64,000 nt of DNA from Candidatus Latescibacterota bacterium (GTDB taxonomy: Bacteria > Latescibacterota > UBA2968 > UBA8231), in contig CBDCNM010000002.1 in the NCBI GenBank assembly GCA_965219385.1, forward strand, positions 1,170,936-1,234,935. The letters are read 5' to 3'. Position numbers and translations under genes: made by a program. The notes beneath the pieces are model-generated. The model saw nothing but the letters and a program-made list of their open reading frames with translations, searched no databases and was not told the origin of the DNA. Every line of letters begins with the position of its first letter. Within the stretch, counting starts at the first letter, position 1. This document shows, one piece after another, positions 13,300 to 42,209 of this stretch.

Positions 13300-15990
13300 T
13301 TAGGCGTTCTGCATAGCTTTGATTTCGTCCACAAAGTCACGTGTGCATATTCCGAACTTCCTCTTTAAGTGCTTGGACTGGTTGGCGTGTCCCTTGTGTT
13401 CATTCCTTCTTTCTGTGACGTCTTGGCGATATTTGCTTACAGCACTGCGTAGATTGGGAGATTCTATTATCAGATCGATACGACTGAGCAATCCAACGAT
13501 ATTTTGCATACGTTTGTGCTCTTTCTCGTGAAACCGTACATATTTGTCGAATAGGTCTTCGATCTCCTCGTCCAGCTTGACCATCGTCTTTGCTCGATCG
13601 ATCATATCTAGGAAATTGTCGAAGGATCGACCGGAGTCGGAGTGGCCATACCATTCTCTGTCGAGTGAGCTGTATAAGCCGATGCCGAAATAGGGAAGTT
13701 TGTTCTTGTCCGCAACCTTTTCCGCATTGCTCAGTACCTCTTGCTGCGCGGTTAGCTTTTTGTCGGCCTTATTCAAGACGATGAATATCGGGGGTTGGGA
13801 CTTACGATATGAAGAAAGCTGAGAATGTTTGCGTTGCTCTCGAAACTCGCAAAGAAAATCGACATCTTCCTGGGGAAGTGTGCCTCTGTCGCAATCGACT
13901 ACCCATATTAGAAAAGGATTAGTCAAGACCTCTTGGAGAGCAATCTTCTTGTCCTCTTCGTCGCTTTTCGCATCATCCGGTTTTGTGTAACCTGGCGTAT
14001 CGATAAAGGCGACTTGTTTACATCTCTCCAAATGTGGTGTGTTGATCACGACTCGTTCTACAATCTGCTTCAGCGGGATACCATAGTCTTTCTCGAACTC
14101 ATGCGTCATCTGCTGAAATGTCGATGTATTGATCGGTGTCTTCCCACCCCCAGAATTGAAAACATTGATTTCCAACTCGTTCTCATCGACATGGGTAATG
14201 AAGGTCGGGATCGAAGTTGTTGGGGTGACCTTTGTGGGCAGGATTTCGTCTCCGATGAGTGCATTGAGAAAACTCGACTTGCCACTACTAAAACTGCCTG
14301 CCACTGTACAGATGTTTCGAGAGGCCAGACGAGGTGCCAATCTCATCTGATTCATGTGCGAGCGGATTATCTCCAAGGCGGCGTATGCTTCGGCTTCCTC
14401 AGGATAAGTGTCGTTGCGGGCAAACTCTCGGTAGTCGTTTTTCAGTAGCTTCTTGAATTCGTTGAAGTGACGCGTATATTCGCCGTTCATGTTATCGCGG
14501 GCAGACATGATTCGCCCGATGAGGTCGAGGGCTTGCTGCGTGCTCTGAGCGTGTTGCTGCACAACTTCCGCAGCTTCGGGCATGGTCTCTTGGATGGTGC
14601 TACGGGCTTGCTCAAGCGTCATGCCGTTCTCAGAATCGCGGGCAGACATGATCTGCCCAGCGCGGTCGATAGCTTGCTGCGTGCTCTGAGCGTGTTGCCG
14701 CACAACTTCCGCAGCTTCGGGCATGGTCTCTTGGATGGTGCTACGGGCTTGCTCAAGCGTCATGCCGTTCTCAGAATCGTGGGCAGACATGATCTGCCCA
14801 ATGAGTTCGAGGGCTTGCTGCGTGCTCTGAGCGTGTTGCTGCACAACTTCCGCAGCTTCGGGCATGGTCTCTTGGATGGTGCTACGGGCTTGCTCAAGTG
14901 TCATGCCGTTCACGTTATCACGGGCAGACATGATCTGCCCGATGAGGTCGATAGCTTGCTGCGTGCTCTGAGCGTGTTGCCGCACAACTTCCGCAGCTTC
15001 GGGCATGGTCTCTTGGATGGTGCTACGGGCTTGCTCAAGTGTCATGCCGTTCACGTTATCACGGGCAGACATGATTCGCCCGATGAGGTCGATAGCTTGC
15101 TGCGTGCTCTGAGCGTGTTGCCGCACAACTTCCGCAGCTTCGGGCATGGATTCTTGGATGACACCACGGGCTTGCTCAAGCGTCATATCCTGGCGCTCAC
15201 TACGCGGCTGTCGACCCGGAGCCAGGCTTTTTGTTATCGCCTCACTAATGGCCCTGACGTATTTCATGATCCCATCAACGAGACCGAGGATCTTCTGAAC
15301 TCTTTGGGTGTGTTCGAGTACAACTTCCGCAGCTTCGGGCATGGCCTCTTGGATGGTGCTACGGGCTTGCTCAAGTGTCATGCCGTTCACGTTATCACGA
15401 GCAGACATGATCTGCCCAGCGCGGTCGATAGCTTGCTGCGTGCTCTGAGCGTGTTGCCGCACAACCTCCGCAGCTTCGGGCATGGCCTCTTGAATGGTGC
15501 TACGGGCTTGCTCAAGTGTCATGCCGTTCACGTTATCACGAGCAGACATGATCTGCCCAGCGCGGTCGATAGCTTGCTGCGTGCTCTGAGCGTGTTGCCG
15601 CACAACCTCTGTGACTTCGGGCATGGCCTCTTGAATAGTGCTACGGGCTTGCTCAAGTGTCATGCCGTTCACGTTATCACGAGCAGACATGATCTGCCCA
15701 GCGCGGTCGATAGCTTGCTGCGTGCTCTGAGCGTGTTGCCGCACAACCTCTGTGACTTCGGGCATGGCCTCTTGAATGGTGCTACGGGCTTGCTCAAGTG
15801 TCATGCCGTTCACGTTATCACGAGCAGACATGATCTGCCCGATGAGGTCGAGGGCTTGCTGCGTGCTCTGAGCGTGTTGCCGCACAACCTCTGTGACTTC
15901 GGGCATGGCCTCTTGAATGGTGCTACGGGCTTGCTCAAGCGTCATACGCTGATGCTTGTCTCTACGCAGTTTGAGCTTCTTCCCACTCAT
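13300..15990 (-). CDS. Dynamin-like large GTPase 1 with an N-terminal 47-aa tandem-repeat array
   Basis: 896 aa. Residues about 16-503 are about 10 tandem 47-aa repeats. These are followed by a dynamin-family GTPase domain: G1 GSFSSGKSSFLNALIG, G3 DTPG, G4 NKAD. A long charged helical C-terminal region follows. Confidence 0.85.
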   Translation of the reverse strand: MSGKKLKLRRDKHQRMTLEQARSTIQEAMPEVTEVVRQHAQSTQQALDLIGQIMSARDNVNGMTLEQARSTIQEAMPEVTEVVRQHAQSTQQAIDRAGQIMSARDNVNGMTLEQARSTIQEAMPEVTEVVRQHAQSTQQAIDRAGQIMSARDNVNGMTLEQARSTIQEAMPEAAEVVRQHAQSTQQAIDRAGQIMSARDNVNGMTLEQARSTIQEAMPEAAEVVLEHTQRVQKILGLVDGIMKYVRAISEAITKSLAPGRQPRSERQDMTLEQARGVIQESMPEAAEVVRQHAQSTQQAIDLIGRIMSARDNVNGMTLEQARSTIQETMPEAAEVVRQHAQSTQQAIDLIGQIMSARDNVNGMTLEQARSTIQETMPEAAEVVQQHAQSTQQALELIGQIMSAHDSENGMTLEQARSTIQETMPEAAEVVRQHAQSTQQAIDRAGQIMSARDSENGMTLEQARSTIQETMPEAAEVVQQHAQSTQQALDLIGRIMSARDNMNGEYTRHFNEFKKLLKNDYREFARNDTYPEEAEAYAALEIIRSHMNQMRLAPRLASRNICTVAGSFSSGKSSFLNALIGDEILPTKVTPTTSIPTFITHVDENELEINVFNSGGGKTPINTSTFQQMTHEFEKDYGIPLKQIVERVVINTPHLERCKQVAFIDTPGYTKPDDAKSDEEDKKIALQEVLTNPFLIWVVDCDRGTLPQEDVDFLCEFREQRKHSQLSSYRKSQPPIFIVLNKADKKLTAQQEVLSNAEKVADKNKLPYFGIGLYSSLDREWYGHSDSGRSFDNFLDMIDRAKTMVKLDEEIEDLFDKYVRFHEKEHKRMQNIVGLLSRIDLIIESPNLRSAVSKYRQDVTERRNEHKGHANQSKHLKRKFGICTRDFVDEIKAMQNA
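14482..15945 (-). repeat. 141-bp coding tandem repeat, about 10.4 copies (47-aa unit MTLEQARSTIQEAMPEVTEVVRQHAQSTQQAIDRAGQIMSARDNVNG)
   Basis: The amino-acid repeats are near-identical, with substitutions EV/EA, EAM/ETM and DRAG/DLIG. There are four copies, then one diverged 65-aa copy, then five copies. The plus-strand ORF 14467-16092 in the track is the antisense image of this array. Confidence 0.9.
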
Positions 15991-16027
15991 GGCTGGTTTC
16001 CTTTCCGTCGTCGTTTCACGAATGATC

Positions 16028-18202
16028 CTAATCTATTTCGGATCGGTGTCGCTTTAGCTTGTCCATGGCCAGCTTGTAGCGTTGCAGCTTGAATCCCTGC
16101 GACTTCAAATCCTCTTCTATGCGACGATGATAATCTTTTAACTCTTGGACTGCCGCCGGAACCAGTGCCTCCTTGGCTTTGGCGGTGACCTTATCGACCT
16201 GTTCCTTGGCTTGGTCGATCCACTCGGTACTCTGTTTGCTCAACGAATGCACCGTCTTTCTGGCGTTCTCCTGTCCCTTTATTGCAGACTCCTCATTGTT
16301 GGGCTCATAGCCGCGAAATGTAGAATCAATCTTCTCGTTTAGTTCCTTGAGTTCTTCGCCCCCTTGTTTAGCGACCTTATCAATTGCATAGCGGACCAAG
16401 CGCTGGATCCGAGTGGGTTTAATCGCATAGGCAGTCTCGTTGTCGATCACGTTTGCGAGCAACTTATTCATCGTATGCTTGGCGCTTTTCTTGAAATCAA
16501 AATTGAATATGGTCTCGGAGACATCTTGGATTTTTTTGTTGAGTTCACCTTGCATGACGAGAATAGCAGTTTCAATACCAGCGGTATTCAATATCTGCTC
16601 TTCGTAAGGTTTCTTACCGCCCCCCCATATCTTCCAAGCAATCCATGGAAGAGATCCTTCCTTTTGTCTCATTTTTGTTTCTACCCTGATTCCATAATCG
16701 ATAATCTCCCTCACTTCCTTGCCTTCCTCGTGGATAGTATCTCTCAGCTTGTTAATCTCCTTTTTTTGCTTTTCGATCAATTCTTCCCATGCATCAACGA
16801 CGTTCTCTTGGATATTTTCCACCATCTCGTCGACATCTTCCTGCTGCTGTTTAATCTCCGCAAGGTCCGTTCCGCGTAGATGCTCACGACTTTCTTCGAA
16901 ATTCTCGATCAGTTCGTTCAGTTCCTCTAAGGTACCATCTCGTTTCTCCCGGAGAAAATCTTGCATCTTATCCTGCATGATCTGATCCTTGTCCCTATGG
17001 ATAGCGGCAAGGCATTCGTCAACTTTCTCTCTATTTCCTAGGTCAGCGAGTATGCTAAGAGTATTTTCGTCAATCGCCTTTTCCCCTTCTGCTAGTTTAT
17101 CAATCCAATCAGGATATCTTTTGTGGAGATTGGCCAAGATAGCTCGCTCTTCCTCGTTCCACTGCGTGACTGGTTTAGTGGCCAAGATTGCGCATATTGC
17201 GGATACAAAGACTATATCGTCTTCCTCGATGGCCATAGAACCGTCCTCGCTGCGATCCTGCTTGAGACCAATCACATCTTTAGCTTGGTCCACCAAGTCT
17301 TCCTCGGTGGAATCCTTGGCCTTCTGCAGATCACCTGCATAATCCTTCGACACATCGATCAAGGCGCTGTCGAACTTGCTACCAATCAACAAACGCCGGC
17401 TAATGCCCTCGGCAGGCACCTGATTGTGAAAGAAGTCCGCGTCCGTACTGTCCATGAACTGTGAGGCTGAGCTCAGCAATAGCACGGCATCGCACTGCTT
17501 CAAGAGGTTATTCGTTTCTCGACACCGGGACGCGATGGGATCGTTGATACCAGGAGTATCGACGATATCGATATCTGGAAGACCTTGACTGCATCGAATC
17601 GTTACGCTCTTGACCAGCGGCGTCATCTTCCCCTCGGAACCAACGAGCTGACGGAGTCTTCCATTCAGTTCGTCAATGGAGGCCGGCAGGACTTCCGTCT
17701 TGCCGAGATGGGGGTCTACCTTGAGGCGGCGTTTCTCGACCATTTCGACCAGTTCATGTGACGCTCTCATAACCTCTGCTGGCTCGCTGGTGGCAGCCTT
17801 TTGTTTTTGGTATTCGTTGGCATAGCGCTTAATTTCCTGCCAATCCTTGTGGTTGTAGTATTCGACTTCGATTTCGTCCCGATCGCTCTTTACGATGTGG
17901 GTCAGTGAGGCCGTCATCGGCGTGGCGGCCTTCGGTAGTACTTCTTGCCCATCAAAGAGCAATAGGTTCAGGAGCGAGGATTTGCCCGACTTGATTTGAC
18001 CTACGATGCCGAGCCGTAGTAGGCGGTTCTCCTCCAGCAAGTCGCTGGAGTATGACTTCAGGTCCTGTTCGATCTCTCGTATGTTCCGTACCTGTGCATT
18101 GTCTTGCTCAGCGATGTCTTCATACTCAATGAAGGTCTGCGACAACGAGGACAAGCTTTTTACTAACTGGTCGCAGTCAGGAGTCAGGTAGTTGTTGCCC
18201 AT
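16028..18202 (-). CDS. Dynamin-like large GTPase 2
   Basis: 724 aa. G1 GQIKSGKSSLLNLL, G3 DTPG, G4-like SKFD. Long Glu/Lys-rich predicted coiled-coil C-terminal half. The start is 38 bp downstream of the preceding gene's stop. Confidence 0.85.
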   Translation of the reverse strand: MGNNYLTPDCDQLVKSLSSLSQTFIEYEDIAEQDNAQVRNIREIEQDLKSYSSDLLEENRLLRLGIVGQIKSGKSSLLNLLLFDGQEVLPKAATPMTASLTHIVKSDRDEIEVEYYNHKDWQEIKRYANEYQKQKAATSEPAEVMRASHELVEMVEKRRLKVDPHLGKTEVLPASIDELNGRLRQLVGSEGKMTPLVKSVTIRCSQGLPDIDIVDTPGINDPIASRCRETNNLLKQCDAVLLLSSASQFMDSTDADFFHNQVPAEGISRRLLIGSKFDSALIDVSKDYAGDLQKAKDSTEEDLVDQAKDVIGLKQDRSEDGSMAIEEDDIVFVSAICAILATKPVTQWNEEERAILANLHKRYPDWIDKLAEGEKAIDENTLSILADLGNREKVDECLAAIHRDKDQIMQDKMQDFLREKRDGTLEELNELIENFEESREHLRGTDLAEIKQQQEDVDEMVENIQENVVDAWEELIEKQKKEINKLRDTIHEEGKEVREIIDYGIRVETKMRQKEGSLPWIAWKIWGGGKKPYEEQILNTAGIETAILVMQGELNKKIQDVSETIFNFDFKKSAKHTMNKLLANVIDNETAYAIKPTRIQRLVRYAIDKVAKQGGEELKELNEKIDSTFRGYEPNNEESAIKGQENARKTVHSLSKQSTEWIDQAKEQVDKVTAKAKEALVPAAVQELKDYHRRIEEDLKSQGFKLQRYKLAMDKLKRHRSEID

Positions 18203-18204
18203 GT

Positions 18205-20010
18205 TTAATTATCCTCCAGAGGTTTTTTTGCTTCAATTAGTCGATTAATGGCATCTCGTAACTGCGCTTTGCGCTGCTCCAATTCATGTCGGTCTTCTTC
18301 GATCTCCTGGCGGCTCTGGTTGATGTCGGCCTGAATATGCTCGATCTCGCCCTGCACTTGTTCCCTTAGTTGGGAGAACATTTTCTGAGTCATCTTGTCG
18401 TAGTCCTCAGTGATCTTCGCTCGGAGCTCTGACGCGATCTTGGGGGCGATGACATTTTCAATTTGTGCCCTTAGCTGCTGCAACTGCTCCTGTTTCCTCT
18501 GTTCCTGGATATTTTTCGAGACCCAGTCGGCTATGTAAGGAAATAAGATAATCACGACCTCCAACCATGGTGCCACCACGGAGGTCGAGGCGGCTAGAAC
18601 GCCGCTGATCGCTAGGTAGGTGTTCTTCGTCCTTCCGCGGGAAAGGTTATTCGCAGCATCTTCAAACGTCTTCGCAATCTTGGGTGCCATGTCGTTCCAC
18701 TTGCGGGCCATGTCCTCGATATCCTCGGAACTCAAGAATCCACCGCTGTCAGCGAATTGCTCATACTGTGCGCCGATTTCGTCGATGTCGGGCTGATAAC
18801 GTTCGACGATCTCCCGAAGCGTCGCGGACCGCTCCTCGTCAACGAGGTTATTCAGGGTCTGACGCACAAGTTCATTGATTTCCTGATTGAAGGCCTGTTG
18901 GCCTCCAGCTTGAAAGGTTTGAACGAGTGATGGCGCATTGTCGCGGATGGCGCTCCGAACACCTCGCAATATCCGATCTACCGCGCGTTGGGAATAACGT
19001 TCTCGGATCTCCCGCTCGTCTTGGCGAAGTTTTTCCTCCAGCGCTTGCTTTTTGTCCTCTAGTTGGTCAATCACTTTATCGTTTTCGGCGGAGGAGACGT
19101 TCAGCGCGGTGTAGCGGGTGTGTAGGCTCTGTATCGCCTCATCGAATAGGACAACAATTTTGCGTCGCCAGAAGCCGCGCAAGGCGTGGTCGAAGTCGAT
19201 GGACTCTAGAATCTGTCGAAACGCCGCCATGTCTTGCTCGTGCGCCGAGACCGACCGCACGACTGCGGACTTCCCGAACGCGCTGTTCACCTGTTCAGCG
19301 ATATAGTCAACGACTGCATGGGCGTCCGCCTTCTTCTTGTCGATCTTGTTGATCAACACGGCAAACTCTATTTCCTGACTGAGAAACTCGCGTAGTTGGC
19401 GAATTTCGCTCTCGCGGAGGGCCCCGTGCTCGGCGTCGACTACCAGAATGAAATAGCTGCCGAGCGGCAGATAGCGTTGAATGGCGGCGTTGTGAGTCAT
19501 CAGACCGGAGTCCAGCCCAGGCATATCGACAAGTACTTTCCGCTCATTATTGGTGAGAGCTGAGGCGTGGAGCATCGCTTTCGCGTACCGTGCGCTCGAC
19601 TTCTCCTCGCTCAGCGTTTCTTTTTCGAAGCGCTGAAAACTTGCGATGTCGATTCGTTCCAGAAACCGGTCATTTTCTCCGTAGATCTCGATTCGCTCCT
19701 CTTCAGCGGAAGAAGCGGAGTGAATCTCGGTAGCCAAGGCCGTCTGCGGCACAATGTCGGTGGGCAGCTTCTTGCTCTCCTCGCGTTCGAGGTATACGTT
19801 TACCAACGAGGTCTTGCCCGCGTTGAATGATCCCACGAGTGGAATCAACACCGTGAACTGCGCGATGCTGCTGCGGAATTCTTCCGCACGTCCACTTTCC
19901 GACTCATTGAGATTGATCTCCTTTGCAATCTCTCTGAATTGGTCCAGAGCGGTCAGATACTCGTCTTGAGTAGTACTCATAGTCGGCCTCCATCCATTTT
20001 GGCTCGTCAT
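18205..20010 (-). CDS. Dynamin-like large GTPase 3 (with a predicted hydrophobic paddle)
   Basis: 601 aa. G1 GSFNAGKTSLVNVYL, G3 DMPG, G4 NKID. A hydrophobic hairpin (YLAISGVLAASTSVVAPWLEVVIILFPYIADWV) lies near the C-terminal third. Its stop (TAA at 18205-18207) abuts the next gene's start at 18202. It is the first gene of the operon, with the RBS ggaggccgactATG. Confidence 0.85.
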   Translation of the reverse strand: MTSQNGWRPTMSTTQDEYLTALDQFREIAKEINLNESESGRAEEFRSSIAQFTVLIPLVGSFNAGKTSLVNVYLEREESKKLPTDIVPQTALATEIHSASSAEEERIEIYGENDRFLERIDIASFQRFEKETLSEEKSSARYAKAMLHASALTNNERKVLVDMPGLDSGLMTHNAAIQRYLPLGSYFILVVDAEHGALRESEIRQLREFLSQEIEFAVLINKIDKKKADAHAVVDYIAEQVNSAFGKSAVVRSVSAHEQDMAAFRQILESIDFDHALRGFWRRKIVVLFDEAIQSLHTRYTALNVSSAENDKVIDQLEDKKQALEEKLRQDEREIRERYSQRAVDRILRGVRSAIRDNAPSLVQTFQAGGQQAFNQEINELVRQTLNNLVDEERSATLREIVERYQPDIDEIGAQYEQFADSGGFLSSEDIEDMARKWNDMAPKIAKTFEDAANNLSRGRTKNTYLAISGVLAASTSVVAPWLEVVIILFPYIADWVSKNIQEQRKQEQLQQLRAQIENVIAPKIASELRAKITEDYDKMTQKMFSQLREQVQGEIEHIQADINQSRQEIEEDRHELEQRKAQLRDAINRLIEAKKPLEDN

Positions 20011-40670: not shown

Positions 40671-41453
40671 CTACTCCGGCGCGTACTGTCCCATGTACCC
40701 GGTGCGGGCTCCCAGGACCTCTTTCAGTTCCCCCGCGCTGGCGTCGATGACCTCCTGGGTGGGAGCGCATCCGGGCCAGCACTGCATCCAGGGTGGGGTA
40801 AAACCGTAGAACATGGTGTAGCGGGTGCGCTCGGAAAGAACCGGCACCCCGGTGTGAATCAGGGCTTCGGTGAAGTGCAGGACCGAACCAGCCCTGGCCT
40901 GCATTTGTTGCACCACGGACGGATCGAAGACCTCGCGCCAATCCTGGGCTTCAATCCGGTGCGAGCCGTCCAGGACCATGGTCCCGCCGTCGTCGGTTCC
41001 AACGTCCGTGAGGAAGGTGATGTTGTTGAGGAAGGTGGTGTTGATATAAGGGTGGTTGTTGGCCGACACGACCCCGTACTTGGGGCGGATGCCGCGATGC
41101 CACCCCATATGGGCGGGATCGGCCAGTTCCGCCCTCTTTGTCTTGCGCTCGGGATGGGGTAGCTTGATCATGGAATGACAGCATTCAAAGCGCGGCGGCG
41201 TGCCCAGAAGCTGCTTGAGGACCGGCAGGATCTTCGGATGCATAATCCAGTCGCGGAAGACCTGGTCGTAGTTTATCATGTTGTCGACGTTCTTGATGTC
41301 CTCGGTATCCTTGTGGACCATGGTCGATACCTTGGATTCGTAGAGTCGGTCCATACCCTGTTTGAAGGCTTCGCATTCCGCGGCCTCGAACACGTCTTCC
41401 TGCAGGACCCAGCCGTGCACTGCAAAGTGATAGAGTTGGGCATCTGTAAGCAT
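40671..41453 (-). CDS. Phytanoyl-CoA dioxygenase (PhyH)-family Fe(II)/2-oxoglutarate oxygenase
   Basis: PhyH-like fold motifs: HxD…H region, …WHRG…, …HFTEALIHTG…. The start is ATG 41453 (MLTDAQLYHF), preceded by aaggag. Confidence 0.7.
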   Translation of the reverse strand: MLTDAQLYHFAVHGWVLQEDVFEAAECEAFKQGMDRLYESKVSTMVHKDTEDIKNVDNMINYDQVFRDWIMHPKILPVLKQLLGTPPRFECCHSMIKLPHPERKTKRAELADPAHMGWHRGIRPKYGVVSANNHPYINTTFLNNITFLTDVGTDDGGTMVLDGSHRIEAQDWREVFDPSVVQQMQARAGSVLHFTEALIHTGVPVLSERTRYTMFYGFTPPWMQCWPGCAPTQEVIDASAGELKEVLGARTGYMGQYAPE

Positions 41454-41562
41454 GATGGTCTCCTTGTTTATCGATAGAGTTGGGCATCTGTAAGCATGAT
41501 GGTCTCCTTGTTTATCGATAGAGTTGGGCATCTGTAAGCATGATGGTCTCCTTGTTTATCGA
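41431..41562. repeat. 44-bp tandem repeat x3 spanning the esterase stop codon, RBS and PhyH start codon
   Basis: The unit is tagagttgggcatctgtaagcatgatggtctccttgtttatcga. On the coding strand this reads …atcgaTAAacaAGGAGaccatcATGcttacagatgcccaactcta. The three copies are perfectly identical. Confidence 0.85.
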
Positions 41563-42209
41563 TCCTCCTCCAGGCGCCGCTGCAGCCAGTCCCTCGTATC
41601 GGCGAGACACTCCGGGTTGATCTCGTGGCCCATATCGTATTCCCTGCAGGTCAGATCCAGGGGCAAACGGCGCAAAAGGGCGCGTGCCGTCCTTCCCTGG
41701 TGGATGGGTATGACCATGTCCTGGCGGCCGTGGGTCATCAGCACGGGCAGGCCTTGCAGGGCCTCGCCGTTGCCCTCCGGCATCATCTCCTCGACACAGA
41801 TACCACTGAGAAATACCACTCCGGCGCACAGCTCGGGACGCACCAGGGCCGTGCTCATAACCATACTGGCTCCCTGGCTGAATCCCAGCAGATAAGTCCG
41901 GTCCACCGGGTGCTCCCTCTGCAGAACCTCCACCAGCCCGGCCACCCGATCGCGCGCCTCGCGGGCCAGATCGTAGTGCAGCACCAGCCCGTTCGGGGTG
42001 AAATCGATCGGGAACCAGGCAAACCCCCCGAAATCCAGCGGATGCGGGGCGCGCACGCTGACGATCAGGAAACCCGGATCCAGGTAAGGGGCCAGCCCTA
42101 AAAGATCTTCTTCGTTGCTGCCGTAGCCGTGCAACAGGACCAGCAGAGGCTGGCTGCCCTGGGGGTTCTCCGCGGCCGGTGGACGGACAATGTAGTGGAG
42201 TGGCCCCAT
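41556..42209 (-). CDS. Phospholipase/carboxylesterase-family alpha/beta hydrolase
   Basis: GFSQGA nucleophile elbow. The LLVLLHGYGSNEED N-terminus is typical of esterase/PHB-depolymerase-like family proteins. Confidence 0.8.
   Translation of the reverse strand: MGPLHYIVRPPAAENPQGSQPLLVLLHGYGSNEEDLLGLAPYLDPGFLIVSVRAPHPLDFGGFAWFPIDFTPNGLVLHYDLAREARDRVAGLVEVLQREHPVDRTYLLGFSQGASMVMSTALVRPELCAGVVFLSGICVEEMMPEGNGEALQGLPVLMTHGRQDMVIPIHQGRTARALLRRLPLDLTCREYDMGHEINPECLADTRDWLQRRLEEDR

Follow-up and report, generated by a model that had tools for sequence, protein, structure and literature searches.

Bacterial dynamin-like proteins (DLPs) are thought to act as heterotypic assemblies, and to our knowledge the spacing of the partners and the manner of their joining have been worked out for one pair only, that of Campylobacter. 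What, then, is to be made of a DLP whose GTPase domain is preceded by ten near-identical repeats? Such a protein is encoded in a 64,000-nt stretch of the genome of a Candidatus Latescibacterota bacterium (assembly GCA_965219385.1, contig CBDCNM010000002.1, positions 1,170,936 to 1,234,935 of the forward strand; hereafter the window), where an open reading frame (ORF) of 896 aa at 13300..15990 (-) is the last of three co-oriented, back-to-back genes with a Dynamin_N domain, here termed DLP-A, DLP-B and DLP-C in their order. A reading of the DNA made without database searches (the sequence-only reading) had noticed the repeats and assigned them to a dynamin-like GTPase 1, whereas they belong to the third gene of the row. 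In DLP-C the N-terminal helical module has been amplified in tandem; the resulting array is genuine and translated, is specific to the lineage and has a copy number that is fixed within it. We propose, with a probability of about one half, that the array forms an elongated acidic helical arm, which, by analogy with the known pair, would set the reach of DLP-C and/or the number of its contacts in a heterotypic DLP complex. The finding is thus descriptive, with anatomy and evolution well documented and the functional side proposed.

Anatomy of the repeat array

The array occupies residues 16-503 of DLP-C (window 15945..14482), exactly the interval for which about ten near-identical 47-aa repeats had been claimed, and consists of ten units opening with MTLEQAR at residues 16, 63, 110, 157, 204, 269, 316, 363, 410 and 457. 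Nine units measure 47 aa and one, unit 5, measures 65 aa, the lengths in order being 47, 47, 47, 47, 65, 47, 47, 47, 47 and 47 aa. Tandem Repeats Finder reports two arrays with a 141-bp period, at 14494-15186 (4.9 copies, 93% matches, score 1141) and 15333-15945 (4.3 copies, 97% matches, score 1135), which flank unit 5 and score far above chance. The variants PEVT/PEAA, EAM/ETM/ESM and DRAG/DLIG, together with the diverged 65-aa unit, are all present as the sequence-only reading had them.

Among the nine regular units, pairwise DNA identity ranges from 84.4 to 99.3%, with 32 of the 141 columns variable. Units 2, 3 and 4 differ from one another at 1-5 nt (96.5-99.3% identical), which points to a recent duplication or conversion, as the earlier suspicion of a recent expansion had it. 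The variable sites form a mosaic pattern: synonymous head and tail markers (T30/G57/T123 versus C30/A57/C123) split units 1-4 from units 5-10, and the block at codons 32-35 comes in two old types, DLIG (L) and DRAG (R), in the order L R R R, long unit, L L L R L. Every unit but the 2/3 pair has several private substitutions. The last unit, which adjoins the neck of the GTPase core, carries the LIG-type block seen there throughout the clade (mostly DLIG) and the end motif ...LIGxIMSAxxxxNG(E).

A Shine-Dalgarno (SD)-like sequence, GGAAAGGAAA, lies 7-16 nt upstream of the DLP-C ATG. Nested isoforms from the internal ATG of each unit were considered and judged unlikely; the unit ATGs have no purine-rich SD upstream (GATAACGTGAACGGC-ATG), in contrast to the true start, and single-copy relatives likewise keep the unit methionine, there as part of a helix. 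An antisense ORF of 541 aa (14467..16092, +) spans the whole array and is not a gene: it is open because the repeat unit has no stops in that frame, and it was rejected because the sense frame continues into the conserved GTPase domain with a ratio of nonsynonymous to synonymous substitution rates (dN/dS) below 1. Matches of Pfam, NCBIfam and PADLOC models within the repeat (potato_inhibit, HMG_WDHD1, MT0933_antitox, PASTA, valine-tRNA ligase, JetC and ZorA) were discarded as spurious, with 0 individually significant stretches and scores that are the sum of ten weak copies.

Copy number and evolution of the array

Near-identical long repeats invite two suspicions, both voiced in the sequence-only reading: that the assembled copy number is wrong, and that it is unstable in the organism. 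Two contigs from other samples, ERZ25072670 (14x) and ERZ25067264 (39x), match the window at 99.6-99.7% identity across 22.7 kb. In both, the array likewise has 10 units and differs from that of the window at 0 and 1 nt, the sole difference being at window 14840, where Q becomes R in unit 8. The array structure is therefore identical in three separate contigs of 4.2-5.7 Mb, a size that would imply long reads spanning the 1.46 kb. That the copy number is an assembly artefact, through a wrong count or a mis-join, is extremely unlikely: beyond the agreement of three multi-megabase contigs from different samples, private substitutions anchor every unit except the 2/3 pair, and the frame stays open into the conserved GTPase domain. 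The general point that repeats are an assembly hazard retains its force for short-read data, where a related contig from the Joint Genome Institute (JGI) with the tail and 2 units could be a collapse; for this genome it is largely dispelled, since the three independent contigs agree.

That contig (L089, 5950-7458, in a syntenic 26.7-kb contig of JGI metagenome 3300012947) encodes a DLP-C with the basic tail and 2 units and without a long unit, and the gene caller missed its true start, a GTG that precedes the called ATG by 51 nt. Two origins are conceivable for its 2-unit form: a genuine ancestral half-array that was never duplicated, or a collapse of short reads via identical K-type heads.

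A contingency or hypervariable locus, in which frequent copy-number change by slipped-strand mispairing or recombination tunes or switches function, is also highly unlikely. Units 2-4, at 96.5-99.3% identity, are good substrates for recombination, copy number differs between lineages, and the 2-unit form occurs in one metagenome contig; against this, the three assemblies from different samples have 10 units each with 0 or 1 single-nucleotide polymorphism (SNP), and full-length members of clusters at at least 90% identity have the same length (896/896, 704/704 and 709/709). In the largest such cluster, 8 of 10 members measure 704-711 aa, and the starts of the remaining two, of 679 and 332 aa, lie within the protein. 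On/off or phase switching by the array is impossible, because 141 bp equal 47 codons and lie within the coding frame. Moreover, units 2 and 3 differ by 0.7%, and the strains by ~0.03% outside one variable patch; because these units diverge more than the strains do, the array predates the strain split. The present array nevertheless postdates the split from the 6-unit lineages (dS ~0.3). The comparison of related strains that had been suggested thus yields no length polymorphism, either within the clusters or among the three near-identical assemblies; copy number is fixed within the lineage, and neither an assembly artefact nor contingency-type instability is supported.

The variable patch is an observation in its own right. 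It covers 300 bp (window 8516..8808) and accounts for ~50 of the 59 (assembly L001) and 87 (assembly L085) differences over the 22.7 kb. It lies in an ORF of 252 aa (8340..9098, -) that Pfam does not match and whose N-terminus has a hydrophobic, signal-like stretch, includes two 3-bp indels, and has one allele shared by L001 and L085, from which the window allele differs by ~25 aa. The window holds no other copy that could have served as a template, and the changes are not specific to adenine; probably a divergent allele of a secreted protein was brought in by recombination.

Between lineages, in turn, the length of the extension does vary, as had been supposed, with 4, 6 or 10 units. In complete long-read arrays, which the following statements cover (the 2-unit contig being the exception), the plan is twice a basic tail, n short units and one 'K-type' unit, with one long central unit. 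The first K-type unit is the long unit, which runs into the linker, and the second merges into the neck. The number n is 1 in two proteins (P0012 and P0013; 4 units), 2 in ~20 sequences (6 units) and 4 in the window (10 units), the largest array found. After the long unit, the 4- and 6-unit relatives have a second copy of the basic tail (KRRLAPGRKTHSAKRQR); the matching stretch of the window has diverged to TKSLAPGRQPRSERQD.

The units evolve in concert, because within a 6-unit protein units 1 and 4 are 92% and units 2 and 5 94% identical (several pairs 100%), versus 80-83% for orthologous units of different proteins; the non-repeat part is 78% identical. Lineage-specific substitutions occur in both halves of the same protein (KFIGRITSVPSNVND in P0010, AIYQAGQ in P0009), and the ARSTIQE head, which in the relatives is restricted to K-type units, has spread to all units in the window. 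The units are also under purifying selection. Their dN/dS is 0.28 among the window units and 0.12 against relatives (rough values, as the units are short, non-orthologous and subject to conversion), that of the non-repeat part is 0.34-0.40, and their conservation between species matches that of the GTPase part. A mere spacer, as the sequence-only reading had it among other roles, is unlikely in view of this conservation and of the dN/dS of 0.12-0.28.

The same data bear on the view that the expansion was tolerated and near-neutral, having arisen by unequal crossing-over in a flexible N-terminal linker, with no functional meaning in the number. The very low confidence of the structure prediction described below would fit this view, as would the hugely variable length of the extension, of which many distant relatives have almost none, and the decay of the cassette in one lineage. 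The low dN/dS and the between-species conservation speak against it, however, as do an ordered plan with a central long unit in every complete long-read array of 4, 6 or 10 units and a copy number that is the same in three strains and within 90%-identity clusters; we regard it as unlikely.

The predicted arm and its proposed role

DLP-C belongs to the dynamin superfamily by its GTPase motifs, its Pfam score (Dynamin_N, 79.3 bits; cutoff 27) and its predicted neck, and it departs from the canonical BDLP architecture in trunk and paddle. The motifs GSFSSGKS, DTPG and NKAD are invariant across the family alignment. Only ~55 residues between array and GTPase domain and ~110 after the domain are left to the core, and these are predicted to form a helical neck bundle on the N- and C-terminal sides of the domain (AlphaFold2 [AF2] neck helices 503-551 and 806-895; core predicted local distance difference test [pLDDT] 80-96). 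In a Foldseek search of the PDB the core matched best truncated mitofusin-1/Fzo1 (GTPase + HD1, E 6e-12, prob 1.00), followed by BDLP, Cj-DLP1/2 and IniA. No trunk or stalk and no membrane paddle were found in DLP-C, and no hydrophobic segment (max KD19 1.12); DLP-A has a paddle-like hydrophobic segment at ~aa 470-497 (KD19 2.03). On its predicted structure the DLP-C core is a minimal dynamin, a GTPase with a short neck bundle, or a natural 'mini-mitofusin'. By sequence, the nearest solved relatives are Cj-DLP1 for DLP-B (E 8.6e-13) and Cj-DLP2 for the DLP-C core (E 2e-7), and no solved relative of DLP-A was detectable. The profile of the repeat unit has no similarity to DLP-A, DLP-B or the DLP-C core, and the idea that the unit is a copied piece of stalk was rejected on that ground.

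Two AF2 runs were made on the array, one of the whole protein with a 33-sequence alignment and one of residues 1-503 alone without an alignment. In both, the array is predicted to be all-helical, with one ~40-residue helix per unit, a kink at Pro15 and loops at D-N-V-N-G, which bears out, at the level of secondary structure, the helical repeat proposed at the outset. The hydrophobicity of the unit has a period of 3.55 residues, exceeded by 0.2% of shuffles (P ~0.002), and A, V, I and T form the seam of the helix. The net charge amounts to -3 for each unit, to -26 for the whole array and to +6 for the tail. Membrane-binding amphipathic helices were rejected for the short units, given the charge of -3, a mean hydrophobicity of ~0 and a low moment. 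Among all 15-mers of the arm, hydrophobicity is highest for ILGLVDGIMKYVRAI in unit 5 (fractional position 0.48). Of 19 relatives of 40-50% identity, 15 have their most interfacially hydrophobic 15-mer at 0.36-0.53 of the extension, and in about a dozen relatives of that range the central 15-mer is W/F/R-rich. The hydrophobic segment of unit 5 may be the diverged 'LIG' helix of the first half.

How, then, could such an extension serve a minimal dynamin? In the reading favoured here, the whole N-terminal module was duplicated repeatedly in one small clade until the plan of two halves arose, with unequal recombination and gene conversion homogenising the units and purifying selection preserving their sequence. 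The ten ~40-residue, amphipathic and net-acidic helices would then form an elongated arm that replaces the missing stalk of DLP-C, and the arm would set the distance and the number of contact sites at which the GTPase head engages its presumed partners, DLP-A and DLP-B. That the halves have grown in parallel (1|1, 2|2 and 4|4 short units) accords with an arm of two limbs, folded back so that the long unit forms its tip; the limbs would stay matched if both halves lengthened in step. A role of the arm in assembly is suggested because there is a Campylobacter precedent and because a stable, selected arm sits on a trunk-less dynamin encoded together with two full-length DLPs, one of them with a paddle. 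In that precedent, the N-terminal helix of Cj-DLP2, 16 residues on a flexible linker, docks into Cj-DLP1 and is needed for oligomerisation, tetramerisation and long-range tethering (PMC6104087).

Several points weigh against this reading, in which the geometry of the arm and its role in complex assembly are both inferred. DLP-B has no counterpart of the N-terminal assembly domain of Cj-DLP1, and no partner-binding site was identified. The pLDDT of the array is 35-75 with the alignment and 43 without, and the predicted template modelling score (pTM) is 0.27, which gives no usable tertiary model; beyond secondary structure, an arm, a hairpin, a bundle and flexible beads would all be compatible with the AF2 predictions. 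The evidence of selection shares the roughness of its dN/dS values, and the matched expansion of the halves rests on three states and would also be produced by gene conversion from half to half. Finally, the central segment in the window is weakly hydrophobic, with a Wimley-White value of ~0 versus -3 to -5 in distant relatives.

A rival reading is that of a multivalent docking array, in which each unit (or the tail and head helix) would bind DLP-A, DLP-B or the neck of another DLP-C, so that copy number would set stoichiometry and not length. Besides the essential docking helix of Cj-DLP2, the sequence kinship of DLP-C with Cj-DLP2 and of DLP-B with Cj-DLP1 favours this, and units as conserved as the catalytic part, with low dN/dS, would fit a sequence-specific interface; moreover, the family-invariant neck-proximal motif L-x-G...A recurs in the DLIG-type units. 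It is countered by DLP-A (601 aa as longest ORF, 590-595 as called) and DLP-B (724-729 aa), neither of which has a corresponding change in length or in repeats across the 4-, 6- and 10-unit lineages, by the missing assembly domain of DLP-B, by the loss of the invariant L-I in the half of the units that are DRAG-type, and by the unrelated helices or coiled coil that distant relatives have in this place, which favour length or shape. Multivalent docking is accordingly possible but doubtful.

A more specific form of the arm, which we hold to be rather improbable, is a length-programmable substitute for a stalk, with antiparallel limbs of n units, a fold at the long unit and a tip, 6, 12 or 24 nm away from the trunk-less GTPase head, that would bind a membrane or a partner weakly. 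The hydrophobic and basic segment of unit 5 would here correspond to the W/F/R-rich central segment of the distant relatives. Were this true, the addition of units to both limbs in step would be the means by which evolution adjusts the distance over which a three-dynamin machine works.

The three-gene cassette, its relatives and known systems

The features of the cassette are listed in Table 1. Its genes have 46-57% G+C, with flanks of ~60-65%, and a scan of the operon for promoters and terminators gave nothing exceeding shuffled expectation.

Table 1. Features of the DLP cassette and of the array within DLP-C, in window positions
Feature	Positions	Strand	Basis
DLP-A, 601 aa	18205..20010	-	Dynamin_N, 55.2 bits
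DLP-B, 724 aa	16028..18202	-	Dynamin_N, 73.6 bits
DLP-C coding sequence, third cassette gene, 896 aa	13300..15990	-	ORF, Dynamin_N
N-terminal basic tail MSGKKLKLRRDKHQR, net charge +6, conserved in relatives	15946..15990	-	
Units 1-4, first half-array, 4 x 141 bp; blocks DLIG, DRAG, DRAG, DRAG	15382..15945	-	
Unit 5, 65-aa 'long' unit: normal head, then LEHTQRVQKILGLVDGIMKYVRAISEAITKSLAPGRQPRSERQD	15187..15381	-	
Units 6-10, second half-array, 5 x 141 bp; blocks DLIG, DLIG, ELIG, DRAG, DLIG	14482..15186	-	
Pre-GTPase helices, aa 504-557 (EYTRHFNEFKKLLKNDY...), predicted neck/HD1 element, pLDDT 82-95	14320..14481	-	
Dynamin_N GTPase domain, aa 563-713; G1 GSFSSGKS, G3 DTPG and G4 NKAD intact	13852..14304	-	
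C-terminal helices, aa 790-896, two long, predicted neck bundle	13303..13623	-	

Outside the array, too, the near-identical assemblies differ from the window within the cassette. In L001 (7789-9963), one SNP at window 17492 (C in the window, A in L001) makes a stop in DLP-B, with 17203 also flagged, and breaks the protein in two, with 236 aa in the GTPase piece and 485 aa in the stalk piece; the split recalls that of LeoC and LeoB, but the break lies after switch 2, and the stop could be either a sequencing error or a true nonsense allele. In L085 (7756-7774) there are ~24 extra bases at the junction of the first two genes, where DLP-B is called with 735 aa and overlaps the end of DLP-A; at the window junction (18205..18214) the two genes are separated by a 2-bp gap.

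Outside the cassette, the window has a perfect tandem repeat of 44 bp x 3.1 (41429..41563, sense -), which is either genuine or an artefact. A gene for a PhyH-family dioxygenase (40671..41531) has its ribosome-binding site, ATG and first 8 codons duplicated by this repeat, and the two upstream mini-ORFs (MLTDAQLYR*) that result follow immediately on the stop codon of a carboxylesterase gene.

The species-representative genome with the closest relative is a Candidatus Latescibacterota metagenome-assembled genome (MAG), with 78% identity over the DLP-C core. The order A-B-C is kept in MAGs of Latescibacterota, Pseudomonadales/Azotimanducaceae, Spirochaetia and Rhodobacteraceae, and more distant A-B-C cassettes occur in Treponema, Acidovorax, Comamonas and others; E. 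coli IncF plasmids have three dynamin-family genes together, the middle one fragmentary. A Pseudomonas aeruginosa megaplasmid (NZ_CP133095.1, 16111-23209; L086) carries three dynamin-family genes in A-B-C order behind a WYL-domain regulator. This cassette adjoins genes for a DEAD/DEAH-box helicase and an EH-signature-domain protein, which we take to be Zorya ZorD/ZorC-like, as well as IS30 and integrases, and its A protein matches the PADLOC model of LeoA (2e-10) and its B protein that of LeoBC (7e-14). The megaplasmid context suggests that the cassette family may be a mobile defence or stress module. Among the neighbours of the cassette in the window PADLOC gave no significant match, only two at E ~6e-4 on one ORF, and a tblastn search of the core against phage genomes gave no match.

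In a survey of 80 related loci, the N-terminal extension proved to be the evolutionarily plastic part of DLP-C, with ~20-30 aa in distant relatives, 60-300 aa at at least 34% identity and 503 aa here, the longest found. All close family members have a helical N-terminal extension, which in the clade of at least 34% identity starts with a basic tail and an 'M-T/S-x-x-x-A' helix and ends in a near-invariant 'L-I-G-x-I-x-S-A' helix just before the neck. In the close family members these two bounding motifs read 'MTxxEA' and 'AIDLIGxIMSA'. Two members (P0014 and L007) have a single ~55-aa module, recognisably one unit, and two others (P0023 and P0025) a two-fold internal duplication. The ~290-aa, Q/L/E-rich N-terminus of the P. 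aeruginosa DLP-C, for which PADLOC matches only LmuB and JetC models, reads from its composition as a putative SMC-like coiled coil. Three further sequences (P0039, P0041 and P0035) are N-terminally truncated gene calls.

The 47-aa unit itself occurs only in a small group, which makes up two clusters at 50% identity, and the clade with such arrays is probably Latescibacterota. The search for related repeat proteins that the sequence-only reading had proposed returned, among 1.84 billion (1.84e9) representative proteins, the unit's own family only, plus one spurious low-complexity protein. The unit profile had no significant match in the PDB (best E 0.55), and no described repeat or domain family gave a significant per-domain match in Pfam or the PDB.

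One apparent 1-unit relative (P0051) was rejected as a cassette remnant whose array is interrupted by inserted DNA. A decayed cassette was observed in L088 (ERZ25067264 ctg834527, 3052-7314), with a 305-aa DLP fragment, opposite-strand genes and a UPF0236-family neighbour. Its DLP-C begins 15 nt after the remnant '...PDKNG' of a preceding unit; an insertion or rearrangement has cut through this array.

The locus thus defines a widespread, undescribed three-gene DLP cassette whose third member, on its predicted structure, is a natural 'mini-mitofusin'. It offers a natural length series, with 4, 6 and 10 units as well as single-unit and coiled-coil versions, for relating arm length to the geometry and function of the complex, and it shows cleanly how, within a cytoplasmic enzyme, a repeat can evolve in concert at two levels, those of unit and half-array. 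If the cassette is a defence or membrane-repair system, as hinted by its plasmid and defence-island relatives, the arm would be a handle on the mechanism.

In the literature that could be searched, no tandem-repeat arm on a bacterial DLP and no such three-gene cassette were found, and comparison is therefore with systems that share single traits. Streptococcal surface proteins of the alpha C and Rib type have, as here, long in-frame units, of a few tens of aa or more, that are near-identical in their DNA, homogenised within a gene and variable in number by lineage. They are secreted antigens with strain-level variation in copy number under immune selection; by contrast, the array of DLP-C is the putative arm of a cytoplasmic GTPase without a signal peptide, is fixed in number within the lineage and follows the two-half plan.

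Tandem DLP genes, as here, are also found in the Leo operon and the Eleos ('Dynamins') anti-phage system (PMC4159319; bioRxiv 10.1101/2022.05.11.491447). DLP-A and DLP-B give weak, partial matches to the PADLOC LeoBC model (6e-11 and 7e-11), and no PADLOC match to the LeoA hidden Markov model (HMM) was found in the window, the NCBIfam LeoA model scoring 16.3 bits versus a cutoff of 325. Eleos has two genes or a split first gene, with neither a third, minimal DLP nor an N-terminal repeat arm, and by architecture and HMM scores the cassette is not an Eleos or Leo system.

The best structural match to the DLP-C core is mini-MFN (the GTPase and HD1 of mitofusin-1/Fzo1; PDB 5YEW, 5GOM and 9KFD), a GTPase with a four-helix neck bundle. 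Whereas mini-MFN is an engineered truncation, DLP-C is naturally minimal, and sequence identity is 11-17%. Mitofusins, unlike DLP-C, have transmembrane anchors and HD2, and their N-terminal domain is not a tandem array; Fzo1p has a poorly understood helical N-terminal extension, a heptad-repeat domain (PMC6104087).

A further comparison is with Cj-DLP1 and Cj-DLP2 (PDB 5OWV and 5OXF; PMC6104087), co-operonic bacterial DLPs with obligate heterotypic assembly and an N-terminal assembly element in the place where the array sits here. The differences are that there are three genes, that DLP-C has no trunk or paddle, and that ~500 aa of tandem helices stand against 16 aa and a coil. In addition, residues 19-309 of DLP-B align to 117-389 of Cj-DLP1, past its 119-aa assembly domain, with ~65 aa before the P-loop of DLP-B. 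Judged by sequence, the cassette is not a pair of the Cj-DLP1/2 type; by analogy, it probably works like Cj-DLP1/2, in heterotypic assembly through an N-terminal element.

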